DNA of 64,000 nucleotides from Nemertoderma westbladi (lineage: Eukaryota > Animalia > Xenacoelomorpha), in the NCBI GenBank assembly GCA_032718475.1, contig JAUCBJ010005111.1, forward strand, positions 21,789 to 85,788, given 5' to 3'. Each line of letters starts with the position of its first letter. The stretch's first letter is position 1. The notes beneath the pieces are model-generated. The model had not been told where the DNA came from. It ran no database searches and was given only the letters and a program-made list of their open reading frames with translations. Made by a program: the position numbers and the translations under genes. Below, one piece after another: positions 2,347 to 39,385 of the stretch.

Positions 2347-3576
2347 TGTTCGCGCTTTCAGACCTTTAGCAGTTTAACCTGCCAAATTTGGATGTCTTCT
2401 AGATTGTAAATCGACTTTAGCCTATGACGAGTATTTGATACACTACATTAGCCGAAGCCAGTCTATGCGCGACCATTCACCCGCTGGATATACCCGGGAG
2501 ACTGGATTCGGAAGCCTAACCTTATTGCGGTGTAGGCCTACTGTATTATTCGACCGATCGTAATATATAATCTCTGACAAATATTATTCACTTTCGGGAA
2601 ATATTAACAGTTCCTTTAGGACGTGGCGCTCTAAATGTGTAAACAGAGTTATGACTTAAACTAGACACAAAGGGATGGCTATGGATTCACGTATATAGCG
2701 CATTCTTTAGGAGATGCTTTGTTATCAGTCACAATCATACACACTACTGCACAATACTGCACACCGATCTGCCGACCTTCACTAATTTTAGTCACATATA
2801 AAGAGAACAACAACCGACTCATGTAGTGCCTATGAAATAGCATTAGATTCACTTCAAACCACTTTAATGTAAGTCGCAATTGTTATATGTAACCGGTCTC
2901 TCTTACCTTCAGTATATCAAGAAGATTGAGGGTTTTATAATTATTTATCGATATTCCAAATATAATAATATTCCATCAACTGATATAATGAATAACCGAC
3001 AGTAAATAGCAGTAAAATTGCGGTGTTTGTATTTGACAATATGATTAGGTGAGTGAGATAACAGATATACGTTTCTATGATTAAGCCTAATAATGTTGGG
3101 CTAAAGCCTGAAAAACACAGAGATTCCAAAGCCGGTCTTCTAGGCTCGGAAAAAACCAACACAACTGATCCCTCTGGGCTGTTGTAGGTATCTTTCAACA
3201 CAAAGAGAAACAGCTCTCATTGGCCGAGTTCCAGATTCTGTAGGTTCCACGAATGTCTAAATGCTGAACTATTCGGGTTTTTGCAGCCCATATTCAACAC
3301 AAGGCGAAATCGCTCTGATTGGTGGATCATTGTTCTGATTGGTTGATCGAACAGAACAAAGAGCCTATAGGCGTACAGCAAATCGGTTGGTAGATTGCGT
3401 CATTTGAGTTAGGTAGTTTAGAGTATTTGAGCGCATTGTGGGAAAACTGGCTTTTTATGTCCGCTAAAGCACACATGCAGACACAGCGGATAAATCGCCA
3501 GTTATGTCCTCTAAAAACACCTTACACAGTACATTGCGGAGAAAAGGGCCAGTTATATCCCGCAAAAGCTTTTACA
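2347..3576 (-). repeat. E1 3' LTR
   Basis: About 99% identical by eye to 12839-14069. Preceded on the minus strand by short purine tract TGGGAGCGG (3577-3585). Confidence 0.95.
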
Positions 3577-3654
3577 CCGCTCCCAGAAAATGGGATTTAA
3601 TTCTATAAAATATAAAAAATCACAGTTTCTAAAATATAAAAATACTCTAAACAG

Positions 3655-6648: not shown

Positions 6649-8637
6649 TTACGTTGGGGAGTCCCTAGATGTTTGTTGGATTAGGGAGGTGGTCGTGGGA
6701 AGAGTATCTTGCCTTCCATAGTTTCCGGACAGTTCTCGGTCTCGTTCCAGTAAACATAAACGACCAACTGGGCGATTGAGCTGCTGTGTCTCGAAGACAA
6801 TTCCAGGTTTCCTCTTCGTCCTGGAATATTGACGATAGAAACATCGCCTCAAATACACGACGGCCTTACAAAGCCGATTCCAGGATCTATAGTGGTCCAT
6901 CGCTCCCGGCAGGAGAGGTGAGAGTCCCGGCGAGACGTCTGGTGTTCCAGATCTCCAGTCTCTCTCTCTGATCTCCACAACAGATCGGTTCGCGGTGGGG
7001 GAGTTTAGATCCACAGCGTCATCCCTGGCAATGTGTAATACAGACAGATCTATCACGGGTTTAAATAACCTTGATTTACTCGTCCGGGTTTTAGGTTTGA
7101 CTTTCTCCGCTCCCTTGGCTTGTCTAATCTCAGCCGTGGTAAGATGGGGAGGCCATTCATCTTCTTTACTTAAGAAGTCGGGTCCACCTAACCAGTCTGG
7201 AGTATCTGTCAGTTCTTGAGGAGTTGCTCCTCTGGAAGCGATGTCGGCTAGATTAATCGTCTCGGGGCAATATCTCCATTGATCTACATTAGAGTTAATA
7301 TCGTCATTATCTGAGGAGTATGGTGTTCCCTCAGTTGGGTCGTCAACTTCACTGCTCTCCACTTCCCATTCACTTAATTGATATACTCGTTCTTTTGGTA
7401 ATCTTTCCATAAGAGTTCTACGGGAAGGGCCAGTAAAGTACCAACCTACTCTAGTTCTTCCCGCATAGGCTTGTAGTGGTTGCGGTTGAGCAGGCCGTTT
7501 CTCCAATGTCTCAAGCGCCTCATGCGCATTTTGGCCGATGAGTATTTGCACTCCAGGGTAGTCTGTGTTGAATCTAGGTATATTAAGCTGCTGGGTGGAA
7601 TCGTCCTCATCCCAGTTATAAGGTTCTACTTGGCTGGTAGCGAAGTTCTTTATCGCCACCATTTTTACTGACCTTATGCTGTGTTCTCCTAGTTCATCCT
7701 GGGGGGTGGACAACGCACCTACATAATAATCCGCTATTACTGTAGATTTCCAAACCTGCATAATTCCTGACATGTTTAACTTAGTTCGGAACTTGGGTTG
7801 TCCAGCAAAGATGTCTTCGGCTAGTTCTTTGACGATGAATGTTCCTGTGCTACCGGAGTCAAGGAGGGCGTTCACTGTATAACTCCTTTTAGGTCCGTGG
7901 ACCCTTAACTGCACTACGGGAAATTCTCGGATTCCTACATTGGAAGTTGGTGCTTTCCAAGATGGTTGTCGGTCAGAAGTAGTTAGGGGGAGCTCGCTGT
8001 CGGTGTCCTTTTCATACGTAAGTGCTCGATACACTGCGGTATTTATCAGGTAACAGGATTCGTTTTCGTCGGAGAATTCGTCCGTATAGAATCCTTCCAT
8101 CTCAGAACTTTGGTCAGTGTCGTTCACATCACTGAATTGGACATGTAGTTCGGACTCACTTACCTGACTCGGGCTGTTTCGATCGAATTCAGTGTGCAAC
8201 AAGATATGATGTTTTGCGCCGCACTTTGCACACCTTGCGTCGGAGTAACAGGTTTGCCGTTGGTGTCCTCGTCTGAGGCAATTATAACACAACCGCTTAT
8301 CCCACATGACTTCACGTCTATCCTTTAATGATTTCCTCATGAATTCATCACACGCACTTAAACGGTGGGGCCCGTCGCGCAGCACACATTTTGGTTTGAT
8401 GTTACTTACCTTACTCTGGGTAACGTTGTGCACACTCGTTCTTTCCTCGGGCTTTCTTACATGAATTCTCTTAGGAGACATAGGAGGAGTTTTTCTTACC
8501 TGTTCTCTCCTGTCATTGGTTCGAGACTTGAATTTACTTACGTCCTTAGGCGCTTTGTTGTCATAGTAAGATCTTTCAGTGTCTTTCCCGCTGTCTTCCT
8601 CTTGAGAAGCCTGGCTTTCGCCGTCGTCTGTAAACAC
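6649..8637 (-). CDS. E1 nucleocapsid knuckles + aspartic protease fused in frame to short RNaseH-end and integrase-end remnants
   Basis: CYNCLRRGHQRQTC, CAKCGAKHHILLH, ALLDSGST; then WRYCPETINLADIASRG...WLGGPDFL and RPVGRLCLLE. No YVDD and no integrase core. Confidence 0.85.
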   Translation of the reverse strand: MFTDDGESQASQEEDSGKDTERSYYDNKAPKDVSKFKSRTNDRREQVRKTPPMSPKRIHVRKPEERTSVHNVTQSKVSNIKPKCVLRDGPHRLSACDEFMRKSLKDRREVMWDKRLCYNCLRRGHQRQTCYSDARCAKCGAKHHILLHTEFDRNSPSQVSESELHVQFSDVNDTDQSSEMEGFYTDEFSDENESCYLINTAVYRALTYEKDTDSELPLTTSDRQPSWKAPTSNVGIREFPVVQLRVHGPKRSYTVNALLDSGSTGTFIVKELAEDIFAGQPKFRTKLNMSGIMQVWKSTVIADYYVGALSTPQDELGEHSIRSVKMVAIKNFATSQVEPYNWDEDDSTQQLNIPRFNTDYPGVQILIGQNAHEALETLEKRPAQPQPLQAYAGRTRVGWYFTGPSRRTLMERLPKERVYQLSEWEVESSEVDDPTEGTPYSSDNDDINSNVDQWRYCPETINLADIASRGATPQELTDTPDWLGGPDFLSKEDEWPPHLTTAEIRQAKGAEKVKPKTRTSKSRLFKPVIDLSVLHIARDDAVDLNSPTANRSVVEIRERDWRSGTPDVSPGLSPLLPGAMDHYRSWNRLCKAVVYLRRCFYRQYSRTKRKPGIVFETQQLNRPVGRLCLLERDRELSGNYGRQDTLPTTTSLIQQTSRDSPT

Positions 8638-10577
8638 ACTGGTATTACCCTTCTCCTAGAAATGGGTTTCTCACTTACCTTATTTTCCGGTGTCTTCTCT
8701 CTGGACTGCTTTAGGAGCTGTAATTTTACTTCTCCATCTAAGAATGACATGAGATCAGCCATGGTAGGGTCTCGTCTTTGATGTTCCATCATATATAACA
8801 CTTTCTTATCCCAGCATGTACCTACTCCACCCTTAGGTAAAGTAGACGCCACGGCTCCAATAACCATAGAACTCTGATATTCATGAGACTTACCTAGCCA
8901 ATCTAATTGTCTACAGATCTCCTGAATCTCATCGGAAAACTCTATAATCCCGCTGCTAATGAATTTTCGGGGCGCTACCAATTTTGCATACAAATACCTA
9001 GCTATGTTATTCCTATTACCATACCTGATGTTTAGGGTATCCCAAACTTGTCTTAATCCATCTGGATGTCCAATAAACTTTAACGCCATTAACTTGGGAG
9101 ATCCTTCCAAGCACTCGATGAGGAATCTAAGTTTCTCTCCGTTAGATAGCACAGAGTTCTGTATGTTATCTTTGTAATATTCATTAAAAGGTAACCATTT
9201 CATCTCATCTCCATTGAACTTGACGATCTCTCCCACCTTTACCGCTTGACGGGCTTCGGTTCTAGCCATTTGACGTGTAAAACTTTCTTGGGCCATCGTG
9301 TTATTTAATATCGAGTTATCGGTATATAAATTTCTCGGATTATGATCAGGTCTATATGGAATATCATTGTCAACAGGTTTATAATTACCCTTAATAGGGT
9401 TCACTTTAGGAGTTTCTACTTCACTAGCAGTATAGATGCGTGTAGGCTCCACACCTTGCGCATGAAATACTTCAGACCTAACAGGTTGACACATTGTTAC
9501 CGGGGTTGGTGGTATACCCCTTTGGATATTTACTAATTTGTCGCGTTCTAATGCGATACTCTGCTGCACCTCTTGCAACTCTAACCTACTTTCCCTCACT
9601 GTGCCATTGAACTGCTGAACAGTTCCTTCCATCTCCCGGACCTGCTGAGAGGAGCACTTGCGGTGTTCCCTCAACTGCCCGAGCAGGAGACCCATCTCCC
9701 GTCGTCCCTCATCTACCCACTCGACCGCCGAAGCGGGAGGCGCCAACGTAGTAGCGGGCGGACGAGGGACAACGGGCGACAAATCATTAATATTTCGCTC
9801 GGAGTCCAGGACATGAACATTTTCTGGGGTGGTTCTGTTGGGCACAGGTAGTTTCGTGCTGTGCAAAGGGAATTTAGAGGTAGGTTCTGGGAGTACAGGT
9901 GTCTCTATCACCGAAGGGGTGGCTTCGAGAACAGGCCTAATTATTTCAGGTTCATCTACTATAGTAGGGAGTCTTTCTAATCCAATAATTTGGTCTGTGG
10001 GTTCTGTACTACCTAAGTCTACACTATCCAGTTGCATTCTCGCCTCAGGAGGTAACGTCCGCTTGAGCATCCGTCTACGTCCGCTTGAACGAGATTTATT
10101 ACCTCTACCTTCGGGATCTCTCATATCACCTTCATCAGAGGAAGCAAATCCCTGTCTTCTGGAAGTATATCGACTCAGTAACCGCATCTGAGCTGCAACC
10201 ATAGCTGTCCTTTGTTTCTTCAAGTATTCTTGTTCCGCCTGAAGTTTTTCCAGCTCTAATTGGGTGGTCTCTTCAGATTCTCTTAGTTCTGCTTCTGCCA
10301 CTGCCGCTTTTCTTTCCGCTTCTATTGCTGCAGCTGCCGCTTTTCTTTCCACTTCTACTTGCTGTTGCTTTAATTGTCTATCCTTAACTAGCCTAGGGTC
10401 GTCTGACACTACTACTGAAGGGATGACCTTTCCTACAGTAGGGGACTTGGACTTTGGTCTGGGATGTTCTATACTTTGATCTTGGTCACAGATCCTTTCA
10501 AGACACTGTCCAAGTCTAAGACTCATTCTAACGCCTTCCAAAAGACTATCTGACAGTGCCCGTTTTGTGTCAGACAT
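8538..10577 (-). CDS. E1 Gag (coiled coil + BEL DUF1759-like region)
   Basis: 679-aa ORF with KFNGDEMKWLPF...EKLRFLIECLEG...W..L..RYG, typical of BEL/Pao Gag. Confidence 0.85.
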   Translation of the reverse strand: MSDTKRALSDSLLEGVRMSLRLGQCLERICDQDQSIEHPRPKSKSPTVGKVIPSVVVSDDPRLVKDRQLKQQQVEVERKAAAAAIEAERKAAVAEAELRESEETTQLELEKLQAEQEYLKKQRTAMVAAQMRLLSRYTSRRQGFASSDEGDMRDPEGRGNKSRSSGRRRMLKRTLPPEARMQLDSVDLGSTEPTDQIIGLERLPTIVDEPEIIRPVLEATPSVIETPVLPEPTSKFPLHSTKLPVPNRTTPENVHVLDSERNINDLSPVVPRPPATTLAPPASAVEWVDEGRREMGLLLGQLREHRKCSSQQVREMEGTVQQFNGTVRESRLELQEVQQSIALERDKLVNIQRGIPPTPVTMCQPVRSEVFHAQGVEPTRIYTASEVETPKVNPIKGNYKPVDNDIPYRPDHNPRNLYTDNSILNNTMAQESFTRQMARTEARQAVKVGEIVKFNGDEMKWLPFNEYYKDNIQNSVLSNGEKLRFLIECLEGSPKLMALKFIGHPDGLRQVWDTLNIRYGNRNNIARYLYAKLVAPRKFISSGIIEFSDEIQEICRQLDWLGKSHEYQSSMVIGAVASTLPKGGVGTCWDKKVLYMMEHQRRDPTMADLMSFLDGEVKLQLLKQSREKTPENKVSEKPISRRRVIPVCLQTTAKARLLKRKTAGKTLKDLTMTTKRLRT

Positions 10578-11908
10578 GTTTGTTTGTACAGTTGAATGCC
10601 TACTGCTATATTACAGTTAAAGCAAGTCTAGTAATTCAGTATCACCGTTAGCCTAGTAATTAATTACCGATACTGTTACTCAGTGTAACGTGATATATAT
10701 ATATAATATATTAGAATACCGGTATACACTTATAGTATATATATAAGTATTATTACAGACTAGGTTTGTCACAGAATACCGGTATATAATTTCAGCACAA
10801 CTATATATATTATATATAATAGGCCTATCGTGAATACCGGTATACAGCTTACACTTATAGTACATATAAGTATAATTATGGACTAGAATTAATTACAGAA
10901 TACCGGTATATAATTTCAGCGCAAATTTATAGAAATAAATATAATGAGCCTATCGTAAATACCGGTATGTCAATTATTTTAGAATAATTGAATTTCTGAA
11001 TTTTAGGGGTTACTTGGTTACTTTACTTTACTTGATTACCGTTATTTAAGCAGTAGTCCAACTGATATTAAGACCTAATGGTTGTAAGACAGGCCTACTA
11101 TTTTATAAATCGGTTTGAGTTGATTTATAATATATATACCCGTTTAATGGGTTTTTGTCAATATTTGAAATAAATGTTATTATTTCTGGGAAGAAGTCAC
11201 TGCACAGAAGCTGTATGCTCTCAGTGAAGTGCTACTTGTTGGACACTAAAACAAATAATTCTAATTTACCTAAGTTACTTAATACTACAAATTACTTACA
11301 ATTCGGGGTGAGATTACAATCTCTAAATAAACACAAAAATTACACGTACGAATTTTTAGGGTAATTTTACAAGAAGTCTACAAACCAGCCTAACAAAGGG
11401 TTAGAATATCTGGTTATTACAGACAGGATACTACGGTATTTGAAAATAACAAGCAGTAGTAAATATACTGCGTTGTCCAGATAGGAAAAAATACCACCGT
11501 CTGACGACTTATAGCCGTATCGCTATAAGTACTACGTTATGTATCACGGAGTGTTCCTACCTAGAAGTTAATTACCGCGGTCTACCAGAACCAACGTGCC
11601 TATTAACCACTTTACAACACAAATATACTGCCTACACACTAATTACTTTCGGAAAGCACTGTACACTAAACCCTAAATTAGGTACAAGTACTTATACAAC
11701 AAATAATCAGCAGTTAGAAATACTTGTACAGCTAAAAGAACCACGGTATCTGCTGGAGTGACTGGGGCACAAAATCACCAGTCTTTACCTACGCCAAGCA
11801 GCCCTGATGTAGTACCGGGGTTAATTTAACTATAACGTTATGTATAACAAGCACAATTACTGTAGGAATAAACTTGGGGATATGAATGTTGCGAATAAGC
11901 GCATAAAC

Positions 11909-12491
11909 TCTGAATAATAAATATTACGCTACGCGTACAGACTACTCAAACAAAATACAGACCAAACGCTGGCAGACTACTATCAAGCCCAAACAAACTA
12001 CAGTATATGCAGACTCCGAAATGGTTAGTTAGTATGCGTTCTAACCGAGTAGTATGACTTATTCTTTCGAGGGGATTTACCTCACAGCACTGGAAGCCCC
12101 TACGTTCCTAACTAGTATTTTATCGGACATACACTCTACACACACCGCAATCTCTTCAGACCTAACAACAGCCAGACAACAATCCAGCCTACAAATTATC
12201 TGAATAAGAAATATTACACTACCCGTACAGACTACACAAATAAATACAGACCAAATGCTGGCAGACTACTATCAAGCCCAAACAAACTACAGTATATGCA
12301 GACTCCGAAATGGTTAGTTAGTAAGCGTTCTAACCGAGTAGTACGACTTATTCTTTCGAGGGGATTTACCTCACAGCACTGGAAGCCCCTACGTTCCTAA
12401 CTGGTATTTTATCGGACATACACTCTACACACACTACAGTCTCTTCAGACTTAACAACAGTCAGACAACAGTCCAGCCTACAAATTATCTG
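11909..12491. repeat. Two tandem ~290-bp copies in the E1 5' leader
   Basis: tctgaataa.aaatattac at 11909 and 12199, with near-identical sequence following. Confidence 0.85.
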
Positions 12492-12825
12492 TACAATCTG
12501 GGCAGGCTTACACGTCTTCTGCTCAATATTAACCTACAAGTAAATAAAACTGACAGAAATAAGTAAAATCTCAATAAAAAACCAGGGCTGCAGTCCCTGA
12601 TTAATTATTAAGGCCTACCGGTATATAATCATCAAAATCGAATAATACTGCTGTACCTGTACTGCTGTAAGTACCGGTCCGGGTGGTTAGGTAGTCAGGC
12701 CTACTGGGTACCGGTTGACCGGTACTTCAGCTTTATTGCCTACTGCAATACAGAAGCAATAACTGTTATTGTTCTTACCAGAACAATATTAAACTGTATT
12801 TATTGCCTACACTGCAATCAGAATT

Positions 12826-12838
12826 GTATATCTGTTAT
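12826..12838 (-). promoter_or_regulatory. E1 primer-binding position, non-tRNA, complementary to its own LTR (13551-13563)
   Basis: Minus-strand ATAACAGATATAC abuts the LTR end. Its exact complement GTATATCTGTTAT lies in the LTR on the same strand. Confidence 0.65.
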
Positions 12839-14069
12839 TGTTCGCGCTTTCAGACCTTTAGCAGTTTAACCTGCCAAATTTGGATGTCTTCTAGATTGTA
12901 AATCGACTTTAGCCTATGACGAGTATTTGATACACTACATTAGCCGAAGCCAGTCTATGCGCGACCATTCACCCGCTGGATATACCCGGGAGACTGGATT
13001 CGGAAGCCTAACCTTATTGCGGTGTAGGCCTACTGTATTATTCGACTGATCGTAATATATAATCTCTGACAAATATTATTCACTTTCGGGAAATATTAAC
13101 AGTTCCTTTAGGACGTGGCGCTCTAAATATGTAAACAGAGTTATGACTTAAACTAGACACAACGGGATGGCTATGGATTCACGTATATAGCGCATTCTTT
13201 AGGAGATGCTTTGTTATCAGGCACAATCATACACACTACTGCACAATACTGCACACCGATCTGCCGACCTTCACTAATTTTAGTCACATATAAAGAGAAC
13301 AACAACCGACTGATGTAGTGCCTATGAAATAGCATTAGATTCACTCCAAAACCACTTTAATGTAAGTCGCAATTGTTATATGTAACCGGTCTCTCTTACC
13401 TTCAGTATATCAAGAAGATTGAGGGTTTTATAATTATTTATCGATATTCCAAATATAATAATATTCCATCAACTGATATAATGAATAACCGACAGTAAAT
13501 AGCAGTAAAATTGCGGTGTTTGTATTTGACAATATGATTAGGTGAGTGAGATAACAGATATACGTTTCTATGATTAAGCCTACTAATGTTGGGCTAAAGC
13601 CTGAAAAACACAGAGATTCCAAAGCCGGTCTTCTAGGCTCGGAAAAAACCAACACAACTGATCCCTCTGGGCTGTTGTAGGTATCTTTCAACTCAAAGAG
13701 AAACAGCTCTCATTGGCCGAGTTCCAGATTCTGTAGGTTCCACGAATGTCTAAATGCCGAACTATTCGGGTTTTTGCAGCCCATATTCAACACAAGGCGA
13801 AATCGCTCTGATTGGTGGATCATTGTTCTGATTGGTTGATCGAACAGAACAAAGAGCCTATAGGCGTACAGCAAATCGGTTGGCAGATTGCGTCATTTGA
13901 GTTAGGTAGTTTAGAGTATTTGAGCGCATTGTGGGAAAACTGGCTTTTTATGTCCGCTAAAGCACACATGCAGACACAGCGGATAAATCGCTAGTTATGT
14001 CCTCTAAAAACACCTTACACAGTACATTGCGGAGAAAAGGGCCAGTTATATCCCGCAAAAGCTTTTACA
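12839..14069 (-). repeat. E1 5' LTR
   Basis: Direct repeat of 2347-3576, TG...CA ends, flanked by TSD CCGAT. Confidence 0.95.
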
Positions 14070-14686
14070 CCGATGAAATCAATAAAAACAGCACTGGACA
14101 TCGCAAACTTGTACTTTTTGGTGATGGGTACGAAATTTGGTGCTAGCACCAAAATTTGCCAAATTACGCCGAAAAATACAAGTAGCAATGATCTGGCAGA
14201 TTAGAAATGTATTCCATTAGAATCAGCGCCCTCGAAAACCTGAAAATGTGAATTTATAGCATCGTATAAGTGAATTAAAAATTTTGTGTTCTAACTGAAA
14301 AGTGCTGGTTACTTGTTTTTTTCATTTTTTTCCTACACAAAGAGGACTAAACAGCCATTTATAGTAATCATATCATTTTTAAATATTTTCCAGTGTATTT
14401 TGCACCCCAGAAAACCTGTATTGAAAAATAATTAGCCGAAAATGTAACTTTCAAATTTTGTGAAAATTGTGCACTACTTCTAATTTTGGTGCTGCAATAT
14501 AACCACCCCAGTACATTTTTTCGAAAATTTTTTTTTTCGGTCGGATCCAGACAAGTGATACCTACGTACAAACAAAAAATCAGACGTTTTCGTAACTATT
14601 TGTAGATTTTAGAGCGGGGGGGTCAATATGACCCCCCCCCCCCGGTATTTGTACAACATTTTATAGCCCGGTACTAATAGGGTTAA

Positions 14687-14777: not shown

Positions 14778-15829
14778 ACGTAGTAGTAGTAGTACAGTAA
14801 GAGTGCAATTAGAAAAGTGATTGATCATGTTTTGAGTGTTTTTGAATAGAAATTATGATGTGATCTTGAGGAGGAGACAAGAGTTGAATATGAATGAGCA
14901 CAATTCTTGTTGCCGTTTAAATCTACAGTACTGAACAGTAATTAATACAGCACATATTTTCTGTAAGTCTTTCTTATGATATATTTTTAAGATTACAGTG
15001 TAAAGCCATTCTCTAGAATCCGTAATTGATGCGGGGGTGGTGCAGGAGATTTATTTACGCCGTTACGTCTACGTCGGCTCTCACTACCTTAGTAGGTACC
15101 GCTTTCAAATTCTATAGAATGGCTAACTTCTACTGTTGGCCTATTCATTAATTACTCGGGTTACATTATAATAGTGATATAGTTTTCAGTACAGTATACT
15201 GACTGCTCTATGTAGGCCTACTATAGAATGAAACGAGTACTGTTTAATTGAGTTATTGTTCAGAGAGGTTAAAGGTACAGTAATTATTAAATGCCTGGTG
15301 TAATAATATAAAGTTGGCTATATTACATTTTGTTAAGAAAGAAAAATATACTGTAAACCATATACAGTTTATGATGATCAAAATCAATTACTGTGTGTAA
15401 TATAATATTGTAATATTAACCTTTAGTTGTTGACCTTGAAGTAATAATGCACTGATCGCATGTATCCGTGATACAGTATTTACTATCTGAACCCTGTGGT
15501 TCTCATTAATTATACAGTATAATCTGCTGTGTGATACTACACTGTTTATACCACTCTATGATGATATATTGTTACACTGAGAAATATTATGATTTCCTAA
15601 GGCTAATGTGTAACCGAAGTTATCCCGAAATGCACAGTGAGTAAAGCAAAATTAGTTATTTTAAAACTGCTTTTCTATCCCGCTCGCTCTTTACCGAGAG
15701 ACTTATTTTTCTTTAAATTGTCTCACAATGCTCCCTACAGTAGCCCAGAGTAGGTCAAGTTTCATAATTTGAGATCCCGGGAAAGAAAAATAAATTTTAT
15801 ATTTGATGTTTTTGGAAAAAGTACAGTAT

Positions 15830-17842
15830 GTGCCCACGAGACATTAGTTCCACGTGAAATTAGTGCCCACGTGATATTAGTGCCCGCTAGACATTAGTGC
15901 CCATGTAAAGTTAGTGCCCACGTGACATTAGTACCCGTTAGACATTAGTGCCCATGTAAAGTTAGTGCCCACGAGACATTAGTGCCCACGTGACATTAGT
16001 GCCCACGTGACATTTGGACCCACGTGACATTAGTGCCCTAGTGAAATTAGTGCCCACGTGACATTAGTGCCCGCGAGACATTAGTGCCCAAGTGATATTA
16101 TTGCCCGCGAGACATTAGTGCCCACGTGACAGTAGTGCCCACGTGACATTTGTACCCACGTGACATTAGTGCCCTAGTGAAATTAGTGCCCACGTGACAT
16201 TAGTGCCCGCGAGACATTAGTGCCCAAATGACATTAGTGCCAGCTAGACATTAGTGCCCGCTAGACAATAGTGCCCGCTGGACATTAGTACCCGCTAGAC
16301 ATTAGTGCCCACGTGGCATTAGTGCCCACGTGACATTAGTGCCCGCTAGACATTAGTGCCCGCGAGACATTAGTGCCTGCTAGACATTAGTGCCCGCTAG
16401 ACATTATTGCCCACCTGATGCTAGACATTAGTGCCCGCTAGACATTATTGCCCACGTGACATTAGTGCCCACATGTTATTAGTGCCCGCTAGACATTTGT
16501 GCCCGCGAGACATTAGTGCCCGCGAGACATTAGTGCCCACGTGACATTAGTGCCCACGTGAAATTAGTGCCCACGTGACATTAGTGCCCGCTAGACATTA
16601 ATGCCCGCGAGACATTAGTGCCCACGAGACATTAGTGCCACGTGAAATTAGTGCCCACGTGACATTGGTGCCCGCTAGACATTAGTGCCCACGTGAAGTT
16701 AGTGCCCAAGTGACATTAGTGCTCGCTAGACATTAGTGCACGCTAGATATTCTTGCCCACGAGACATTAGTGCCCACGTGAAATTAGTGCTCACGTGACA
16801 TTAGTGCCCGCTAGACATTAGTGCCCGCTATAGACATTAGTGCCCATGAGACATTAGTGCCCACGTGAAATTAGTGCCCACATGACATTAGTGCCCGCTA
16901 GACATTAGTGCCCGCTAAATATTAGTGCCCACGAGACATTAGTGCCCACGTGAAATTAGTGCTCACGTGGCATTAGTGCCCGCTAGACTTTAGTGCCCGC
17001 TAGACATTCGTGCCCACGTCAAATTAGTGCCCACGTGACATTAGTGCCCTCTAGACATTAGTGCCCGCGAGACATTAGTGCCAACGAGACATTAGTGCCC
17101 ACGTGAAATTAGTGCCCACGTGACATTAGTGCTCACTACACATTAGTGCCCACGTTAAATTAGTGCCCATGTGACATTGGTGCCCGCTAGCTAGACATTA
17201 GTGCCCGCTAGCTAGACATTAGTGCCCGCTAGCTAGACATTAGTGCCCGCTACACATTAGTGCCCACGTGAAATTAATGCCCACGTGACATTAGTGCCCG
17301 TTAGATAGACATTAGTGCCCGCTAGACATTAGTGCCCGCGAGACATTAGTGCCCGCGAGACATTAGTGCCCACGAGGCATTAGTGCCCACGTGAAATTAG
17401 TGCCCACGTGACATTAGTGCCCGCTAGGCATTAGTGCCCACGTGAAGTTAGTGCCCACGTGACATTAGTGCCTGCTAGGCATTAGCGCCCGCTAGATATT
17501 AGTGCCCACGAGACATTAGTGCCCACGTGAAATTAGTGCTCACGTGACGTTAGTGCCCGCTAGACATTAGTGCCCATGAGACATTAGTGCCCACGTGTCA
17601 TTAGTGCCCGCTAGACATTAGTGCCCGCTAGACATTAGTGCCCATGAGACATTAGTGCCCACGTGAAATTAGTGCCCACTCGACATTAGTGCCCGCTAGA
17701 CATTAGTGCCCATGTGAAATTAGTGCCCACTAGACATTAGTGCCCGCTAGACATTAGTGCCTGCTAGATATTAATGCCCACGAGACATTAGTGCCCACGT
17801 GAAATTAGTGCCCACGTGACATTAGTGCCCGCTAGACATTAG
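15830..17842. repeat. 15-bp satellite (GACATTAGTGCCC-acgt/gcta variants), left part
   Basis: Contiguous 15-mer array, interrupted by E2. Confidence 0.97.
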
Positions 17843-18493
17843 TGTAAGCGGATTCAATTCCGTTCATCTCCACCATAAAGTGGGACCAGTGGCATTTTAC
17901 CAACTAGTTGGCGATGCGAGATTACCAATAAATAATCTCTTCTCATAACCAACTCGGGGGGGGGGGGGGGGCGACACACGCCCTAAGCCACAGAGAGAGG
18001 TGAGAGGTCAAACCACCTCAGAGGGAAAACCCAGCTAGCGAGGCTAGCATTAGGGAGTAACACCTACAGGGAGTGCCGAAGTGACAATTAGTATATAAGC
18101 CAATAGCGGGCAGGGAAGCACGTGGGGGAGGATAGAAGGGCATCCAATGGGTATCAAAGGCCACAGTAATGTAGAGGTGAAACTAATATGTATCAATCAT
18201 ATATTTACTCTGATTACTGATTTACTGGTCAGTTCATTATTATGCAATAGTTTTGACCGTCATTTTATAGTCTTTGTAACTTATACTACGATTACTGTAT
18301 TGTTGCTGTGATCATTTATATTACAATCTATGTTGTTCATTAATCCGACTGTGCTATTATCGTTGAGATTAATACTCCCTATCCGATATTTTTCCCGACG
18401 GCCTTCGGCCAAAGATACCAGCCCAGCAGACCAGCAACTAAGTGATGCGTACAGCCTTACCCGGTCGGGATCATAGAACTCAATCCCGTCACA
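17843..18493 (+). repeat. E2 5' LTR
   Basis: Direct repeat of 28127-28767 with several indels. Confidence 0.93.
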
Positions 18494-18504
18494 GTCAAAA
18501 CTAT
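18494..18504 (+). promoter_or_regulatory. E2 primer-binding position, non-tRNA, complementary to its own LTR (18247-18257)
   Basis: GTCAAAACTAT directly after the LTR. ATAGTTTTGAC present in both LTRs. Confidence 0.6.
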
Positions 18505-25090: not shown

Positions 25091-27390
25091 GTGAGCACGG
25101 GAAAGTTTGTGATGGCGGAGAGGTTAGTAAAGAAGAGAAAGGCGGAGAAGACTGGAAAGGAGTTACTAGTGGACTTCACGCAGAGGCATCCGGAGGAGAA
25201 GACGAGAGGATACTACAAACTGCAACAAAGGGTCACAAAGCGCACACACTACAGGACCAGTTTAGGGAGATGCACGAGAGATGACTGGTCAGGACCTACG
25301 GGACGCCGTCGTTAGACAACACGATCCTCGAGCATTTCTGCTATGTAGTAAAGGGAGACGAGGCGAAGTTTGGGATACCGAAGTATCCGAGGGAACCACC
25401 GAGGAAGGAGTGGAGGAGGTTTGTGGAGTCCGTGAGCAGGGGCAGGTACATTGTCCTAGATGATGAAGGGACTGTGGAGGACGATGAGGGCTCGAGAAGA
25501 GGGTCGGCGGGATCGTCCAGAACTATACTACTGCATTTGGCAGCGCCAAACGGAGATATTTTTCTATTCGATCTGGGGACCTACGGGAAGAAGAGCGGGC
25601 CGAAGTTGAACCGGTTGCCGAGGGCGGTGCAGGACCTAGTGAGACAGAAGACTACAGTTAAGGTGGGATCGGCGATCCGCGACGATGCGGACAGGATAAT
25701 CGGACCGGAGACCCCAATCTCCTGGACATGCAAGTGGTCTATATGGCTATGATGGGGCCAGAGAAATTGGGATTAGTAGAGAACCCGGGACATTGTGGAG
25801 CCGTGGCGATGGGCCAACTGATGGGGCTCGTCTGCCACAAGCCGATGGACTGGGGCAAGTTCCGAGAGGAGTACGGAGCAGAACTTGCGAACTTGCTGAA
25901 ATGGGGAGCGAGGCCAGGGAAGCAGGAGATATATCAGTTCCTAAGGGGAGCGATAAAGATATATCAGAAGAGATATATCTTACAGGAGGATTGGATAATG
26001 ATAGGTTTATTAAACCTATTCATGGCCGTGGTTTTCGGAAGAGAGCCAACGGCGTTTCTACTATCAGGAGCACCTCTAAATCACAGGAGAGCAATCATCA
26101 GGATTGCAAGCGATGCCCATACCATGGGGCTCCGAGGGCGATTTTGGAAGGAAGAGATGGAGGGAGCTGGAAGGGTGGCAAGTCATGGGTGGAAACCAAG
26201 GTGGAAAGGGACATAGTGGATCTACCGGGCTACTGGGTTCGGGTCCACTCCCGGCGAGAGAGGAGGATGATGACGAGTTCGGGGTGATGCCACTGATTGA
26301 GAGAATTGCGGCCCCAGCGGGGGACGAGGGGGAGGACAAGTTCGGCGTAATGCCGCCGATTGCGAGGATCGGCCACTCAGATACGGACTGGGGTGGCGGG
26401 AGAGTGGTGAGCGGGGCAAGAGCCTTCTGGGACAAACCCGGTAAGCGGACCTGGGAGCACAGGGAGCCAGCGATGGATTTCGCGGCAAGTTCGATCAGGT
26501 TGGGCGAGCTACCGGGAACGGCACCACGAGTAGTGTTTGGGGAGACGATGCCGAGGGTGGAGGAAGACGTCGACATGGGTAGGGACCACAGCATCCAGAT
26601 GTTTGCTTATCAGCGGCTCCATAGACCCAGGAGACCACACGGGGCCAAGGATGACTTGGGGCGGGACGCACTGATACACGGCTGTGATTACTGTGGGAGG
26701 CTAACCCACCAGGAAAGGAGCTGCCTGTATCGATTCCAGAAGGGGACGAGCTGTCTCTACTGCCGTGAGTCGACCCATAGGATGGGTGCATGTCCAAGGC
26801 TGCACAACCGATGCTCAAAGTGTAACTTTCGAGGGCACTTTGGGCGCCAGTGCGATTGGATGGACGACGAAGAGAAGTTTAGGATCTTCGAGGAGTGGGC
26901 CGACGTCGGTGTCATGACAGGGCAGAGGATAAAGGCCCAGGAGTTCCGGTGGGGCTTCTTTAATATCAACCTGGGAGCCGACCAGGATATTATTAAGAGG
27001 AGACTGCCATTCACATATCAGGAGGTAGCGACAGCGGCATCATATGGAGGAGTCATTAACACTCAGATATACTTAGATAGATGGTCGCCAGAAAATAGGG
27101 TCGAGTTCAGGGACTTTCTCGCAGAGCATGTGCCGCGGGCGATGAAAATGATCCTGTGGGACGCTACCAGGGGGAAACAGGAGGGACACTCGGAGGGACC
27201 ACCCGCAAAGCGATACAGGGAGTTGATAACACCTGCGCCCAAAGAACCAACGACGGGGCTTAGCAAAACGGTATCGGCAAGGATGAGGAGTCTGCAGGAG
27301 GATAAGCCGGAGGGAAGGAAACGGCCCAGACAAGATGACGATTGGGGCAAAGATCTCAGATGGTTCCCGAAGGCGGGAGGAGCGAACTAG
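25091..27390 (+). pseudogene. E2 accessory ORF3: DEDDy-type 3'-5' exonuclease + three CCHC zinc knuckles (frameshifted)
   Basis: YIVLDDEG; LHLAAPNGDIFLFDL; LPRAVQDLVRQKTTVKVGSAIRDD; YQKRYILQE; CDYCGRLTHQERSC, CLYCRESTHRMGAC, CSKCNFRGHFGRQC. Confidence 0.8.
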
Positions 27391-28126: not shown

Positions 28127-28767
28127 TGTAAGCGGATTCAATTCCCTTCATCTCCACCCTAAAGTGGGACAAGTGGCATTTTACCAACATGGCGTTGGCG
28201 ATGCGAGATTACCAATAAATAATCTCGCCTCATAACCAACTCGGGGGGGGGGGGGGCGACACACGCCCTGCCCTAAGCCACAGAGAGAGGTGAGAGGTCA
28301 AACCACCTCAGAGGGAAAACCCAGCTAGCGAGGCTAGCATCAGGGAGTAACACCTACAGGGAGTGCCGAAGTGACAATTAGTATATAAGCCAATAGCGGG
28401 CAGGGAAGCACGTGGGGAAAGATAGGAAAGCATCCATTGGGTATCACAAAGGCCACAGTAATGTAGAGGTGAAACTAATATGTATCAATCATATAGTTAA
28501 TCTGATTACTGATTTACCGGTCAGTTGATTATCACATAGTTGCGGACTGGCATAGTTTTGACCGTCATTTTATATGGTAAATTACAATTACTGTACTGTT
28601 GCTGTGATTATTTATATTACAATCTATGTTGTTCATTAATCCGACTGTGCTATTATCGCTGAGATTAATACCGAGAAATCGGCCAAAGATACCAGCCCAG
28701 CAGACCAGCAACTAAGTGACGCGTACAGCCTTACCCGGTCGGGATCATAGAACTCAATCCCATCACA
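28127..28767 (+). repeat. E2 3' LTR
   Basis: Follows the poly-G PPT and ends ...TCACA before TSD ATTAG. Confidence 0.93.
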
Positions 28768-31700
28768 ATTAGTGCCCGCTAGATATTAGTGCCCACGAGA
28801 CATTAGTGCCCACGTGAAATTAGTGCTCACGTGACATTAGTGCCCACTATACATTAGTGCCTGCTAGACATTAGTGCCCATGAGACATTAGTGCCCACGT
28901 GAAATTAGTGCCCACATGACATTAGTGCCCGCTAGACATTAGTGCCCGCTAGACATTAGTGCCCACGTGAAATTAGTGCCCACATGACATTAGTGCCCGC
29001 GAGACATTAGTGCCAACGCGACATTAGTGCCCACGTGAAATTAGTGCCCACGTGACATTAGTGCCCACTACACATTAGTGCCCACGTGAAATTAGTGCCC
29101 ACGTGACATTAGTGCCCGCTAACTAGACATTAGTGCCCGCTACACATTAGTGCCCACGTGAAATTAATGCCCACGTGACATTAGTGCCCGTTAGATAGAC
29201 ATTAGTGCCCGCTACACATTAGTGCCCACGAGACATTAGTGCCGGCGAGACATAAGTGCCCACGAGGCATTAGTGCCCAAGTGAAATCAGAGCCCACGTG
29301 ACATTAGTGCCCGCTAGACATTAGTGGCCGCTAGAAATTAGTGCCCATGAGACATTAGTGCCCATGTGTCATTAGTGCCCGCTAGACATTAGTGCCCACT
29401 AGACATTAGTGCCCATTCGACATTAGTGCCCAGGTGAAATTAAGTGCCCACGTTACATTAGTGCCCGCTAGACATTAGTGCCCGCTAGATATTAGTGCCC
29501 ACGAGACATTAGTGCCCACGTGAAATTAGTGCCCACGTGACATTAGTGCCCGCTAGACATTAGTGCCCGCGATACATTAGTGCCAACGAGACATTAGTGC
29601 CCACGTGAAATTAGTGCCCACGTGACATTAGTGCCCGCTACACATTAGTGCCCACGTGAAATTAGTGCCCACGTGACATTAGTGCCCGATAGCTAGACAT
29701 TAGTGCCCGCTAGATATTAGTGCCCACGAGACATTAGTGCCCACGTGAAATTAGTGCTCACGTGACATTAGTGCCCGCTAGACATTAGTGGCCGCCAGAC
29801 ATTAGTGCCCATGAGACATTCGTGCCCATGTGTCGTTAGTGCCCGCTAGACATTAGTGCCCATTAGACAATAGTGCCCACGTGAAATTAGTGCTCACGTG
29901 ACATTAGTGCCAGCTAGACATTAGTGCCCGCTAGACATGAGTGCCCATGAGACATTAGTGCCCACGTGTCATTAGTTCGCGCTAGACATTACTGCCCATT
30001 AGACATTAGTGCCCATGTGTCATGAGTGCCCGCTAGACATTAGTGCCCACGAAACATTAGTGCCCATGAGACTTTAGTCCCCACGTGTCATTAGTGCCCG
30101 CTAGGCATTAGTGCCCATGAGGCATTAGTGCTAGTGCCCACGTGTCATTAGTGCCCGCTAGACATTAGTGCCCATGAGTCATTAGTTCCCACGTGTCATT
30201 TGTGCCCACCAGACATTAGTGCCCGCGAGACATAGGTGCCCATGAGACTTTAATGCCCACATGACATTAGTGCCCGTAGACATTAGTGCCCGTTAGACAT
30301 TAGTGCCCATGAGACATTAGTGCCCACGTGTCATTCGTGCCCGTAGACATTAGTGCCCGTTAGACATTAGTGCCCATGAGACATTAGTGCCCACGTGTCA
30401 TTCGTGCCCACTTGAAATTAGTGCTCACGTGACATTAGTGCCCGCTATACATTAGTGCCTGCTAGACATTAGTGCCCATGAGACATTAGTGCCCACGTGA
30501 AATTAGTGCCCACATGACATTAGTGCCCGCTAGACATTAGTGCCCGCTAGACATTAGTGCCCACGTGAAATTAGTGCCCACGTGACATTAGTGCCCGCTA
30601 GACATTAGTGCCCGCGAGACATTAGTGCCAACGCGACATTAGTGCCCACGTGAAATTAGTGCCCACGTGACATTAGTGCCCGCTACACATTAGTGCCCAC
30701 GTGAAATTAGTGCCCGCTAACTAGACATTAGTGCCCGCTACACATTAGTGCCCACGTGAAATTAATGCCCACGTGACATTAGTGCCCGTTAGATAGACAT
30801 TAGTGCCCGCTACACATTAGTGCCCACGAGACATTAGTGCCCGCGAGACATTAGTGCCCACGAGGCATTAGTGCCCAAGTGAAATCAGAGCCCACGTGAC
30901 ATTAGTGCCCGCTAGACATTAGTGGCCGCTAGAAATTAGTGCCCATGAGACATTAGTGCCCATGTGTCATTAGTGCCCGCTAGACATTAGTGCCCACTAG
31001 ACATTAGTGCCCATTCGACATTAGTGCCCACGTGAAATTAAGTGCCCACGTTACATTAGTGCCCGCTAGACATTAGTGCCCGCTAGATATTACTGCCCAC
31101 GAGACATTAGTGCCCACGTGAAATTAGTGCCCACGTGACATTAGTGCCCGCTAGACATTAGTGCCCGCGATACATTAGTGCCAACGAGACATTAGTGCCC
31201 ACGTGAAATTAGTGCCCACGTGACATTAGCGCCCGCTACACATTAGTGCCCACGTGAAATTAGTGCCCACGTGACATTAGTGCCCGATAGCTAGACATTA
31301 GTGCCCGCTAGATATTAGTGCCCACGAGACATTAGTGCCCACGTGAAATTAGTGCTCACGTGACATTAGTGCCCGCTAGACATTAGTGGCCGCCAGACAT
31401 TAGTGCCCATGAGACATTCGTGCCCATGTGTCGTTAGTGCCCGCTAGTCATTAGTGCCCGCTAGACATTAGTGCCCATTAGACAATAGTGCCCACGTGAA
31501 ATTAGTGCTCACGTGACATTAGTGCCAGCTAGACATTAGTGCCCGCTAGACATGAGTGCCCATGAGATATTAGTGCCCACGTGTCATTAGTTCGCGCTAG
31601 ACATTAGTGCCCATGAGACATTAGTGCCCATGTGTCATTAGTGCCCGCTAGACATTAGTGCCCACGAAACATTAGTGCCCATGAGACTTTAGTCCCCACG

Positions 31701-32473
31701 TGTCATTAGTGCCCGCTAGACATTAGTGCCCATGAGGCATTAGTGCTAGTGCCCACGTGTCATTAGTGCCCGCTAGACATTAGTGCCCATGAGACATTAG
31801 TGCCCACGTGTCATTAGTGCCCACCAGACATTAGTGCCCGCGAGACATAGGTGCCCATGAGACTTTAATGCCCACGTGACATTAGTGCCCGTAGACATTA
31901 GTGCCCGTTAGACATTAGTGCCCATGAGACATTAGTGCCCACGTGTCATTCGTGCCCACTTGAAATTAGTGCTCACGTGACATTGGTGCCCGCTAGACAT
32001 TAGTGCCCTCTAGACATTAGTGCCCATGAGACATTAGTGCCCACGTGTCATTAGTGCCCGCTCGCTAGACATTAGTGCCCGCTAGACATTAGTGCCCACG
32101 TGTCATTATTGCCCGCTAGACATTAGTGTCCATGAGACATCCGTGCCCACGTGTCATTAGTGCCCGCTAGACATTAGTGCCCGCGAGACATTAGTGCCCA
32201 TGAGACTTTAGTGCCCACGTGTCATTAGTGCCCGCTAGACATTAGTGCCCATGAGACATTAGTGCCCACGTGTCATTAGTGCCCGCTAGACATTAGTGCC
32301 CATGAGACATTAGTGCCCATGAGACTTTAGTGCCTACGTGTCATTAGTGCCCGCTAGACATTAGTGCCCGCTAGACATTAGAGCCCATGAGACATTAGTG
32401 CCCACGTGTCATAAGTGCCCGCTAGACATTAGTGCCCATGAGACATTAGTGCCCACGTGAAATTAGTGCCCAC
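28768..32473. repeat. 15-bp satellite, right part, with ~1.6-kb internal duplication
   Basis: Same 15-mer. Rare variant gtgaaatcagagccc recurs at 29281 and 30879. Confidence 0.97.
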
Positions 32474-34105
32474 CTAGCGAATTATTATATGTCATTCAAC
32501 AGGGCCAGGAATACATCTCCCGCTTCTTTATTTCCTGCTCGAACGCAAACTATCTTCAAACGTCAAAAGGACAACTTTCCAATTCAAGCTTTATCCCCCC
32601 CCCCCCCCCCCCCCCATACCTCTGGTTAAATTTAACCTTTTTACTTTCTACTCGAATCAATTATGATTGAAAAATTAATTAACCTCGGTTAGGAGCGGTG
32701 GCATTTATATTATTTGGTTTTGCGGCCAATTCTTCAAGGAGTGATGTTCAAGCGACGGCGTTTGATTATTTATACATAAACTATTTTTAACTGAGTATGT
32801 TTAAATTGTTTTTTTTAACTTTGCTTTGAGACAAGATTTAATATTAAAACAAGGTGTAGGTAGTACTTATAATTATTGTCCGAGGACACACTAACTATTT
32901 ATATTATTGCAATGGAGGAGACCGTTGTCGACGACTTTGGTGTAGTTGAATGGGATATATGTAAGAAGAAAAATCGGATATTCCGCTGTGTTATTGCTGG
33001 TGTAGTGGTGATCATATTATATTTATGTTTACTTGGAAACCGTTTAAAACTGTTGGGAACAAACTTTTTGGGACGCCACTAATATGAGTGGTTCGTTGAA
33101 AGTCGACAATCCTGGTTATCGAACAACCTACCTGTACATATTATAAAGAGCTCGTCTGACTTACTGCCTTTACACAATTTACCAATACCGATGTATCTTT
33201 TTGTCATTAATCTGTATATTTGAGTCAGGTTTGTTAACTCAATGATGTGTAACTGGTGTAATATTGCTGGAGACACTTTTTTTTAAACGCATGTAGCTAA
33301 AGATTGAAAGCAAAAATAAAAATTCTGGCTCACCCAGTCAGTGGTCGGGAGGTGAAACTATCTCTGTTTCAAATTTCATGCAATCTCATTATGATTTGTA
33401 AAAAAATTAGGGGGGGGGGGGGGGGGGGGGGGGCGTGTCACTGAATTACGACACTATATTCTGGGACATGGTGTATGGATGTTTCAATACCGGTATAAAA
33501 TGCAAGGTGGCGTTCAATAACGATATGTGCTGTATTAAGCAGAGACGGTTTACACACTCCCATATACACCATAACCCTTTAATACAACAACCATTTTTAG
33601 GATGTCGGAGCTCCCCCCCCCCCCCCCCCCCCCACCCCCCACCCCCTAATTTTTTTCAAATTTCAATAAAATGCTACGAAATTTGGTATGATGATAGATC
33701 GACACCTTTTCTTACTGGTGGCCTGGCCGGATTTTTTAATTTATCATTAGATCATTAGAGCCCTCATCTGCGGATTCTGAATCTGAAATCCGTTGAAAAT
33801 TTCACCAAGAACTTCCGGAGATATTATCAAAATACTAAGGTGTAAATCTTTGTGACATAAATCGCTATAATTCTAATGTTTTTTTTACTCAATTCTAGAA
33901 TATTAATTATACAAAAGAATAACATAGCTAAAGTGTGGTTTGTAATTGTAATTGTAAGTGTGGTTTGTAATGTAATTTATTGTTACTACGGCAACAATAA
34001 ATTTATATACCTATTGTAGATAATTTTGTTAATATTTGCTTGTTATTACCAATGTAACCTCCAGTGAGTAATTAAATCAATAAAATTTACAACATTATTG
34101 ATGTT

Positions 34106-34861
34106 TTGAGTATGACAACATTGAGTTCAGGTTTGGAAGGTTGTGACTATTGTGAATTGTCACCATGTCAACGGTGTGTGGATACCCAGCGGATATGCAA
34201 AGTTTGTCGAACGCTGGCTTTCTACAAAGGCGACAAAGAACTGAAAAAGGGCGAATTCTGGAACAAGATGATTCGAATGTTTGAACCGATAAAACCAGGT
34301 GAATTATTTGCGAATGGCTCAGACAGACATCGATATTTGTTCAAAGGGTTGCCTTCTATCAGTGTGTATCGAAGCGATTACGTTAATTTAATGAATAAGT
34401 TAGATTGGTCGACAACGACTCGATGGAAAGAACCCAAGTTCACAGCGAAACTTCAAGTGGAAGAATGCGAGCAGTCCTTGCTTCGAAAACTGCCAATAGT
34501 TAATCAGAAACCCAGCGACATTGACTTGGATAAACGTGGGGGGGAGATAGATGAAGTTAATGGTAGAGGAACAGCGAATCTTGGGAGTGGACAACTCGAT
34601 TATAAACCAATAGTGGAGAGAATCCGGGTGACTGTTCCAAAAGTAACACATGATGATGGGGGAATGTGGTTGAAGCCCGCAACTACGAAACAAAGAGTTA
34701 TGTTGCGGGATCTAATGAGGTCGGTAGATAACCCGAAGGAAACAGTTCTGAAAGATGGATTATCTGAATGGGTGAAAAATACTTCACAATCAGATCGATC
34801 GGTAATCTCAGAGTTCCTAGACAAAATAGACAAATATGTTGAGAATGAAGATAGTCAATGA
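34106..34861 (+). CDS. Unknown 251-aa protein with Cys-rich N-terminus
   Basis: Uninterrupted ORF, less AT-rich than its flanks, CDYCELSPCQRC...CKVC. No transposase motif recognised. Confidence 0.55.
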   Translation: MSMTTLSSGLEGCDYCELSPCQRCVDTQRICKVCRTLAFYKGDKELKKGEFWNKMIRMFEPIKPGELFANGSDRHRYLFKGLPSISVYRSDYVNLMNKLDWSTTTRWKEPKFTAKLQVEECEQSLLRKLPIVNQKPSDIDLDKRGGEIDEVNGRGTANLGSGQLDYKPIVERIRVTVPKVTHDDGGMWLKPATTKQRVMLRDLMRSVDNPKETVLKDGLSEWVKNTSQSDRSVISEFLDKIDKYVENEDSQ

Positions 34862-35284
34862 GGAAGTGCAAAAAATACTGAATATTATACAAAGAGTTTA
34901 ATGTCAGAACAGCACATTTGCTTTTATTATTCTGTAAAAAAATTAATGAATATAATTATAATATTATATATATATTTATTAAGACTTATTGTGATACTAA
35001 TTATGGGTAATGAAAAAACAAGATGGAGAGTTTTAAACGCTCAGCTAAATAATAATTAATATTCTAGAATAAAGACAACAAAACATCAGAATTATAGCGA
35101 TTTACGTCCCTGAATTTCCACATTAGTATTTTGATAATATCTTTACCAATTTTTGGTTAAATTTAAAACGGCTTTCAGATTCTGAATCTACAGACGAAGG
35201 CGCTTCGAATGATATCTAGACTACATTTCAAAGACGTAAAATAAAGTCTACCGAGGTGGTTAAACATTGCTAAATAGACATTTT

Positions 35285-37469: not shown

Positions 37470-37544
37470 TCTCGTGGCGTAGTGGTCAGATGGTTAAGGC
37501 GTTGTTTGCATTACATAGGTTACGAGTTCGAATCCCAGTCGGGA
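37470..37544 (+). promoter_or_regulatory. tRNA-like Pol III A/B-box cassette in the E3 LTR (second copy 52294-52368)
   Basis: TGGCGTAGTGG (A box) and GAGTTCGAATCCC (B box) at tRNA-like spacing, followed by TTTT. No clean cloverleaf. Confidence 0.6.
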
Positions 37545-37760: not shown

Positions 37761-39385
37761 TCTTCTCTTGTAAAACTTCTTCAGTACCCTTATCTCTTGC
37801 ATTAGTGCTTCACTCTCTTGCTTAGTTATTTGTTTCTTGTTGAAACTATGTTAATCTGTTTGATAATTCTTTGCTAAACTGTAAGTACATTTGTAAACTT
37901 CTGAACATGTTTTTCTGCATTTGTCCAACTTTGGGACAGCAAAGCATCAGGGAGATGGCCGCCTAGACCGATAGGCCGTCAGCAACGCAGGGAAAGGATG
38001 TCCACAACACGCTAGCGCCCACATTAGCTTAGACCGCGCACCCCTTCGCCCTTCGAAATGCTCCACTTGCCATGCGGCGCCCGCTTTATGAGGAAGGTAA
38101 GACTTTGTTTGATGCCCTTGCCCGACGTAAGACCTATAGATCAGGGTAAGCGTGACGCCGTCCTGGGACGCCGCAAATTTAGGATCAAATAACTATATTT
38201 TGGCAGAACCCCCCCCCCCCATCAGTAGTACGAACCCCTGGGTTACCTGTATACCTCACAGGTGCGAATTATTGCCGTTCATCAGTACGCGAGTACACAT
38301 TAGGTACGGACAGCATATGTTCCATAATTTAGTGATTCGCAGTACTGACCGTTTGGTACCGGTTCGCTTTGTAGACTATACATTAGTACCCTACCCCCTC
38401 CTGAAGTTAGTTATTTGATCAGGCAAGGAGTATTTCTGCTACCGGCATACCGCTTGGCCTAGGGAGGTTTTATTAATATCCTACCGCGCCTTGCCACGTA
38501 CTGATAGGTATTGCTGCTAACTACCGCAGCAACAAAGTTCTAGAATCAAATTTGTATACCAGATCAGCTAACGTACGGTAGCGATTAACCCCTATTTCTT
38601 GTCTTACAACCAGAATCTGGTATTTGTGCAGATCACGGGTGTAGTTACTAACACCGTGGTTGCCCAGTTGAGTTGTGGATAGGAAGGAGAGAGTTTTGAT
38701 GTCATTTGTAAGTATAAAGTTCTACAAAACGCGACTAGCTTATTTTAGTAGCTAGCGCACGGTATCGTTTTGGTCAGAGAATTACTAAAACCTAGTAAAT
38801 GATATACACCAAAATTGTTTTATTGTAACACACCCACGCACACACGCCCTAAAACATATTTACCCTTAGAGTTCCTACTAGATAGCGCAATTTAGATTTT
38901 AGGCAGAATTTATCTGTATTTGTAAATTAGGGTCAGATATTTAGTTACGGCAAAGGAGTATTTCATTTTCGTTATTAAACTGTTGTTTGCCTAGAGCAGC
39001 AGTATTGTTACATTAGGTCCGACCCTTTTAGACTGATTTCGGACAGGGGGATCAGTTATCGTTACATTTAGGCACGACCTCTTTTAGGCTGATTCAGACA
39101 GGGGGATCAGTATTGTTACGCTAGGGCTGTAACCCACCTAGCTCGTATATAAACCATATAAATCACACCGCGGCAAGTTACTGTATTTAGGACTGTCAGC
39201 GATAGTTAGGATTCGCTGCGTGGGGATTGTTTTCCCGTGAGTTTGGTCTGTTACTGTAACTGTACATCTGCCATACCGGTTAGAGGACAGGTATCCTTTT
39301 GTCTAGTTCGTAGGCATTAGACCCGCCCACGTACATGGAATAGACACCAGGCTCTGCTCCTCGCCAGTAGTAGTTTGTGTATTGT

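Follow-up and report, generated by a model that had tools for sequence, protein, structure and literature searches.

Self-priming of reverse transcription is reported for the Tf1/sushi group and predicted for Tcn1 and the copia elements TAR and Houba (PMC6317226, PMC4600332). Tf1 and Tf2 of Schizosaccharomyces pombe, Tj1 and Tf1/sushi elements have no tRNA site and carry an LTR segment of ~11 nt that complements the site behind the 5' LTR (PMC7175516, PMC4600332). The Tf1 leader is described as a three-duplex 'pretzel' structure with two flanking side stems (bioRxiv 2022.12.06.519325). BEL/Pao, the least studied LTR superfamily, is described as tRNA-primed, and in the ICTV account of Belpaoviridae a host tRNA is the primer, bound at an 18-nt site for tRNA-Arg or tRNA-Gly (PMC8742986). 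Literature searches over mainly open-access papers found none on a self-priming BEL/Pao element, including in connection with introns or splicing. The passages covered of PMC3601003, PMC5341516, PMC8220671 and PMC554778 hold no such case. In the main text of De la Chaux and Wagner (PMC3118150) the words PBS, primer, priming, intron and tRNA are absent, and neither PBS nor tRNA occurs in the main text of the Sinbad paper (PMC554778).

The window analysed here, a stretch of 64,000 nucleotides from Nemertoderma westbladi, holds the elements E1, E2 and E3. As in Tf1 and its relatives, E1 has no tRNA site and an LTR segment complements the site behind its 5' LTR. Unlike those Ty3/gypsy chromoviruses, the elements described below carry BEL/Pao domains only (DUF1759, Peptidase_A17, DUF5641).

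Element E1 and the complementarity behind its LTR

E1 is a minus-strand LTR element running from 14069 to 2347. Its 5' LTR (12839..14069, minus strand, 1231 nt) reads TG...CA on the minus strand and is 99% identical to the 3' LTR (2347..3576, minus strand, 1230 nt), the pair differing by 11 substitutions and one indel, none inside the pairing segments. Because the LTRs differ by so little and a 5-bp target duplication, CCGAT, flanks both sides (2342-2346 and 14070-14074), the insertion is young. A purine tract ending GGGAGCGG (3577..3590, minus strand) adjoins the 3' LTR. The gag ORF (8538..10610, minus strand; ATG at 10577) matches DUF1759 (E 1.6e-11), and a second ORF in a different frame (6649..8655, minus strand) carries zinc knuckles and the protease motif LLDSGS (7866), after which only the RNase H end (from about 7281) and both integrase ends follow. 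E1 thus has no reverse transcriptase (RT), has lost the greater part of RNase H and is without the core of integrase; lacking RT, it is non-autonomous and depends on the RT of a helper. The 2.2-kb leader contains a tandem duplication of ~290 nt at 11953-12496.

In tblastn searches, E1 proteins match E2 and BEL/Pao loci. The type of Gag and protease, the LTR pair, the purine tract and the target duplication are those of BEL/Pao; within pol, only the RNase H and integrase remnants match that superfamily, and E1 is absent from the tree described below. E1 resembles Belpaoviridae (PMC8742986) by homology in Gag, in protease and in what it keeps of RNase H and integrase, by its TG...CA LTRs and purine tract, and by its domain order. 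Since it is without the 18-nt tRNA-Arg/tRNA-Gly site, we label it BEL/Pao-type by protein homology and not an ICTV semotivirus. A search for E1 Gag homologues returned nothing inside its length window, an exact-pattern metagenome scan found no E1-family copies, and the viral contigs searched held 0 relatives. Contig depth over the E1 LTR drops about tenfold near 13515, depth not being copy number. No variants fell in the pairing arms among 40 of the 485 variant rows, those listed.

The original prediction held that the E1 leader begins with a 13-nt exact complement of its own LTR, and this was confirmed. The sequence GTATATCTGTTAT occurs once on the plus strand, at 12826-12838, adjoining the LTR end at 12839, and its reverse complement is found only at 13551-13563 and, as a second copy in the 3' LTR, at 3058-3070. 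The predicted primer-binding site (PBS; 12826..12838, minus strand) therefore lies at offset 0 from the LTR end, and the predicted self-primer (13551..13563, minus strand, 13 nt) lies 506 nt from the start of the LTR and 712 nt from its end, with AT as its last bases and C as the next. On one side the pairing ends precisely at the LTR edge; on the other it extends imperfectly, with duplex energies of -14.5 kcal/mol for the 13 nt and -22.0 kcal/mol with the extension; TGG is missing from the site, the first leader TGG being at base 59. Speculatively, the extension beyond 13 nt could be left over from plus-strand synthesis that overran the primer. E1 has the complementarity of at least 10 nt starting 0-5 nt behind the LTR from which self-priming was predicted for plant copia TAR, Houba and Osr-1 and gypsy Tcn1 (PMC6317226). 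Unlike E1, those elements belong to other superfamilies and hosts, and the passages covered there mention no BEL/Pao case and no spliced primer.

Complementarity of this kind might arise by chance in an AT-rich repeat. When the E1 LTR was shuffled with dinucleotides preserved, at least 13 nt at offset 0 was reached in 2/20,000 shuffles and at offsets 0-5 in 12/20,000. Among 9,231 interior start positions, 13 nt is reached at two: the E1 site itself and a single other position. The duplex energy is ordinary for the AU-rich composition, 52 of 836 interior windows being equally good. The E1 duplex is exceptional by its length, position and recurrence, not by energy alone. The pattern recurs in E3, in the E2 family and at 18 metagenome loci, and this recurrence effectively refutes chance, to which we assign negligible probability.

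A host tRNA half or another small RNA could also prime E1, the LTR match then being incidental. Half-tRNA priming has been described for copia lineages (PMC6317226), and E1 itself offers neither a TGG nor, in 12500-14100, any Rfam match at E up to 1; ARAGORN called no tRNA genes in the window. Such a reading would need a different RNA for each of 20 families together with a chance LTR match every time, and we regard it as very improbable. Two other candidates were set aside. The E1 primer resembles a tRNA-Asn anticodon loop over only ~6 bases, and a spliced primer for E1 reaches 7 nt only.

In RNA folding, the E1 U5 plus leader gives a z of -4.7, with 0/200 shuffles equally good, and two side stems are predicted. 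In one, a U5 arm (13013..13029, minus strand) is predicted to pair over 15/17 positions with a leader arm directly behind the PBS (12805..12821, minus strand). In the other (U5 stem, 12839..12970, minus strand), the LTR end at 12856-12839 is predicted to pair with about 12967-12952, so that the PBS sits between the two stems. This recalls the two side stems of the Tf1 'pretzel' (bioRxiv 2022.12.06.519325), a likeness predicted for E1. The U5-leader stem is modest against background in E1 (16/835, 3/118) and not above background in five other elements (20-104 of 118); as a predicted feature it is not group-wide. An unconstrained fold of 774 nt starting at the primer forms the primer duplex in cis, with an overall z of -0.7 that is unexceptional.

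The leader arm shares bases with the imperfect continuation of the primer duplex, so that the U5-leader stem and this continuation compete. Such alternative pairing would suit a conserved RNA switch, acting in packaging, dimerisation, translation control or PBS masking, with priming left to an unknown host RNA or protein. The E1 start site is uncertain and primer cleavage only predicted, which fits the switch as well. We consider this reading unlikely, and the evidence against it comes from the relatives described below.

Promoter-like signals in the E1 LTR call for caution. Every match to TATA[AT]A (13432, 13189, 13061) falls downstream of the primer; upstream of it there are only CCAAT boxes (13835, 13815, 13716), 150-270 nt away. 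The best TATA match, at 13432, would contradict the self-primer model if it were the sole start. With the ATTAAA at 13361, the R region after the predicted cut would be ~200 nt long. On the minus strand, a strong donor-like site (13399) follows the primer by 150 nt, and a donor/acceptor-like pair (14018-13601) precedes the primer.

Neighbouring elements in the window

E3 is a BEL/Pao element with Peptidase_A17 and DUF5641 domains, bounded by plus-strand LTRs at 17843-18493 and about 28127-28767 and a target duplication, ATTAG. Its predicted self-primer (18247..18257, plus strand, 11 nt) lies within the 5' LTR and ends in AC followed by C, and its predicted PBS (18494..18504, plus strand) starts at offset 0. 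The layout is that of E1, in 11 letters unrelated to those of E1. A TATA-like box lies ~155 nt upstream of the primer. The element sits in an array of 17-nt satellite repeats (15700-17840 and 28768-32473).

E2 likewise carries Peptidase_A17 and DUF5641 and has LTRs of about 2.5 kb (37332-39386 and 52156-54690), twice the ICTV range, with the target duplication TATAC and an insertion in the 3' LTR near 53360-53590. Its integrase homologues, where named, are mostly from echinoderms, fish, cnidarians and molluscs. Its own 5' LTR end and PBS have been lost by deletion, and the evidence comes from other copies of the family. In contigs that run past the E2 3' LTR end, the first ten letters complement a predicted primer segment at 38250..38259 (plus strand) in sequencing runs X1, X2 and X3. 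These loose ends, judged by eye, comprise 6, 4 and 4 contigs with agreement of 0.72-0.76, X1 and X2 being one sample. One single-contig row agrees, and the two contigs of X4 are without the pattern. Among control 10-mers, 112/30,800 have a complement in an E2 LTR. E2-family copies thus appear to have the self-primer layout over 10 nt. A spliced primer built from a donor-like site near 37890 was rejected, the loose ends fitting the contiguous segment. The E2 TATA-like box lies ~530 nt upstream of the primer.

The predicted E2 primer falls in a pyrimidine tract (38250-38262) right before an acceptor-like AG; splicing there would therefore remove the primer, not build one. The U3 of the E2 LTR includes a tRNA-like segment (37460-37545) that ARAGORN did not call. 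Both neighbours have extra ORFs after pol with zinc knuckles, at 47770-51514 in E2 (zf-CCHC, E 1.2e-4) and 25285-27390 in E3. A short motif common to these ORFs resembles 3'-5' exonucleases; Pfam gave no exonuclease match for it. Two further segments of the window, 864-1733 and 33580-36349, contain part of a non-LTR-type RT (RVT_1) and an element that has long terminal inverted repeats.

Predicted primer layout among metagenome relatives

Alignment of 27 BEL/Pao polyproteins led to 79 metagenome loci, of which 51 were left out: their LTR end, PBS or LTR body lay outside the contig, the end could not be placed, or the locus repeated a family. The remaining 28 loci, with E1 and E3, gave 30 LTR ends for a uniform test. 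It accepted Watson-Crick pairing that starts at an offset of 0-4 and runs either unbroken or over any GT[AG]...AG junction, and counted 10 nt as a pass. In contrast to Belpaoviridae (PMC8742986), a tRNA-type TGGT[CG]C site is present in only 5/30 ends and is found neither in E1 or E3 nor in 23 metagenome loci. None of the five reaches 10 nt of self-complementarity, and 20 of the 25 ends of non-tRNA type match their own LTR over 10-13 nt, so that self-complementarity and tRNA sites are mutually exclusive in this set. The five non-tRNA ends that fail are L006 and L014 (LTRs incomplete), L016 and L054 (a bulge needed) and L063 (no match). Within each passing element, 0-5 of about 1,480 interior positions reach the observed length. 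The LTRs of L004, L009, L051 and L063 appear to end in TA, not CA.

The passing elements fall into two forms. Seven have contiguous primers (E1, E3, L005, L009, L015, L028 and L051), and 13 have primers only across a predicted LTR intron (L004, L007, L011, L026, L032, L033, L044, L045, L061, L062, L065, L071 and L076). The predicted introns are 71-478 nt long, and the split primers take 4-7 nt from exon 2 and 4-8 nt from exon 1; in L004 the split primer is 11 nt with an order-respecting donor. Two features that were not searched for accompany the matches. Primer 3' ends are AC in 17/20 and AT in 3/20, with C as the next base in 17, and the splice donors read GTAAG in 12/13, against 19/245 background GT[AG] sites. 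The shared AC/AT end, mostly followed by C, may be an indirect sign of primer release by RNase H. RT-integrase identity among the 19 passing elements with pol has a median of 49% and a maximum of 71%.

The strength of these matches depends on how each LTR end was placed. Where an LTR pair fixes a non-tRNA end, as it does in eight cases, the end always passes; three of these eight end in TA, and for two the position was set by eye at a mismatch. For the 12 other passing ends there was no LTR pair and the placement took the match partly into account, so that they are weaker. For E1, the original prediction inferred a geometry suited to self-priming. That geometry is strongly supported, being repeated with different letters in the two window neighbours and 18 metagenome relatives, and priming from it is our reading of that sequence pattern.

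These data bear directly on the RNA switch, which has no need of a duplex starting 0-4 nt from the LTR end in 20/20 cases with a shared AC/AT end, and would not explain its absence from 5/5 tRNA-type elements. A host primer shared by the group is excluded by PBS letters that differ in every family. The spacing of primer and PBS, 712 nt in E1 versus 102-236 nt in the six other elements with contiguous primers, could point to self-priming in trans, with the primer taken from a co-packaged second RNA or a short LTR transcript. The E1 family is very abundant in host DNA runs, so LTR transcripts could be plentiful. The 774-nt fold nevertheless makes the duplex in cis, and we give priming in trans only a slim chance; it amounts to a version of the favoured reading, not a competitor, and sequence cannot tell cis from trans.

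A FastTree phylogeny of 57 RT-integrase rows, midpoint-rooted without an outgroup, includes E2 and E3, which form a long-branched pair. The five tRNA-type loci cluster with a Stomoxys protein (support 0.62), and their sister is the split-primer locus L061. The rest of the tree consists of self-type elements, contiguous and split forms being intermixed; L054, self-type in the tree by eye, fails the uniform test. From this intermixing and the replication cycle, we infer repeated intron loss in the group.

A proposed priming route and its meaning

The E1 LTR segment probably primes minus-strand DNA synthesis of its own element in place of a tRNA. The best reading is Tf1-like self-priming by an internal LTR segment, not by the first bases of the RNA. 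Unlike the Tf1 primer, the primer here seems internal, judging by promoter-like motifs and split primers. An RNA start at the first bases of the primer (13563-13575, Tf1 style) looks unlikely as a rule for the group, because TATA-like boxes lie upstream in E2 and E3 and an exon and intron precede the 3' half of the primer in 13 relatives.

In the proposed route, E1 RNA would start upstream of 13563, two U5 stems would display the PBS, and the 13551..13563 segment would anneal to it. A cut after the last base of the segment would expose a 3'-OH at the first position past the LTR; the cutter would probably be the RNase H of the helper element's RT, as in Tf1. RT would then copy 712 nt back to the cut and jump to the 3' LTR, which would supply U3, a fresh copy of the primer and, if that copy is unspliced, any intron. 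In many relatives the primer would exist only once the LTR intron had been spliced out of the 5' copy, and contiguous primers such as that of E1 would represent versions of this system that lack the intron.

For the wider group, we lean, with reservations, towards a more general proposal. Many marine BEL/Pao elements may have dropped tRNA priming independently of Tf1/sushi and adopted an internal LTR primer. In many families the spliceosome would join the primer halves across an LTR intron that persists via the unspliced 3' LTR, so that splicing would gate reverse transcription, and intron-less forms would arise repeatedly by splicing of the 3' copy.

The E1 feature is most likely a self-priming site, a variation on a known mechanism in a superfamily described as tRNA-primed; a splice-built primer is the boldest extension of this reading. 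An internal or splice-built primer raises the questions of which enzyme cuts it and how the intron persists through an RNA stage, and also of what halts plus-strand synthesis in the absence of a modified tRNA base. Annotation tools that demand a tRNA match will miss or mis-call such elements. If true, a self-primer in BEL/Pao would mean that hairpin priming either arose independently once more or was retained from an early stage, and would thereby bear on how LTR replication arose.
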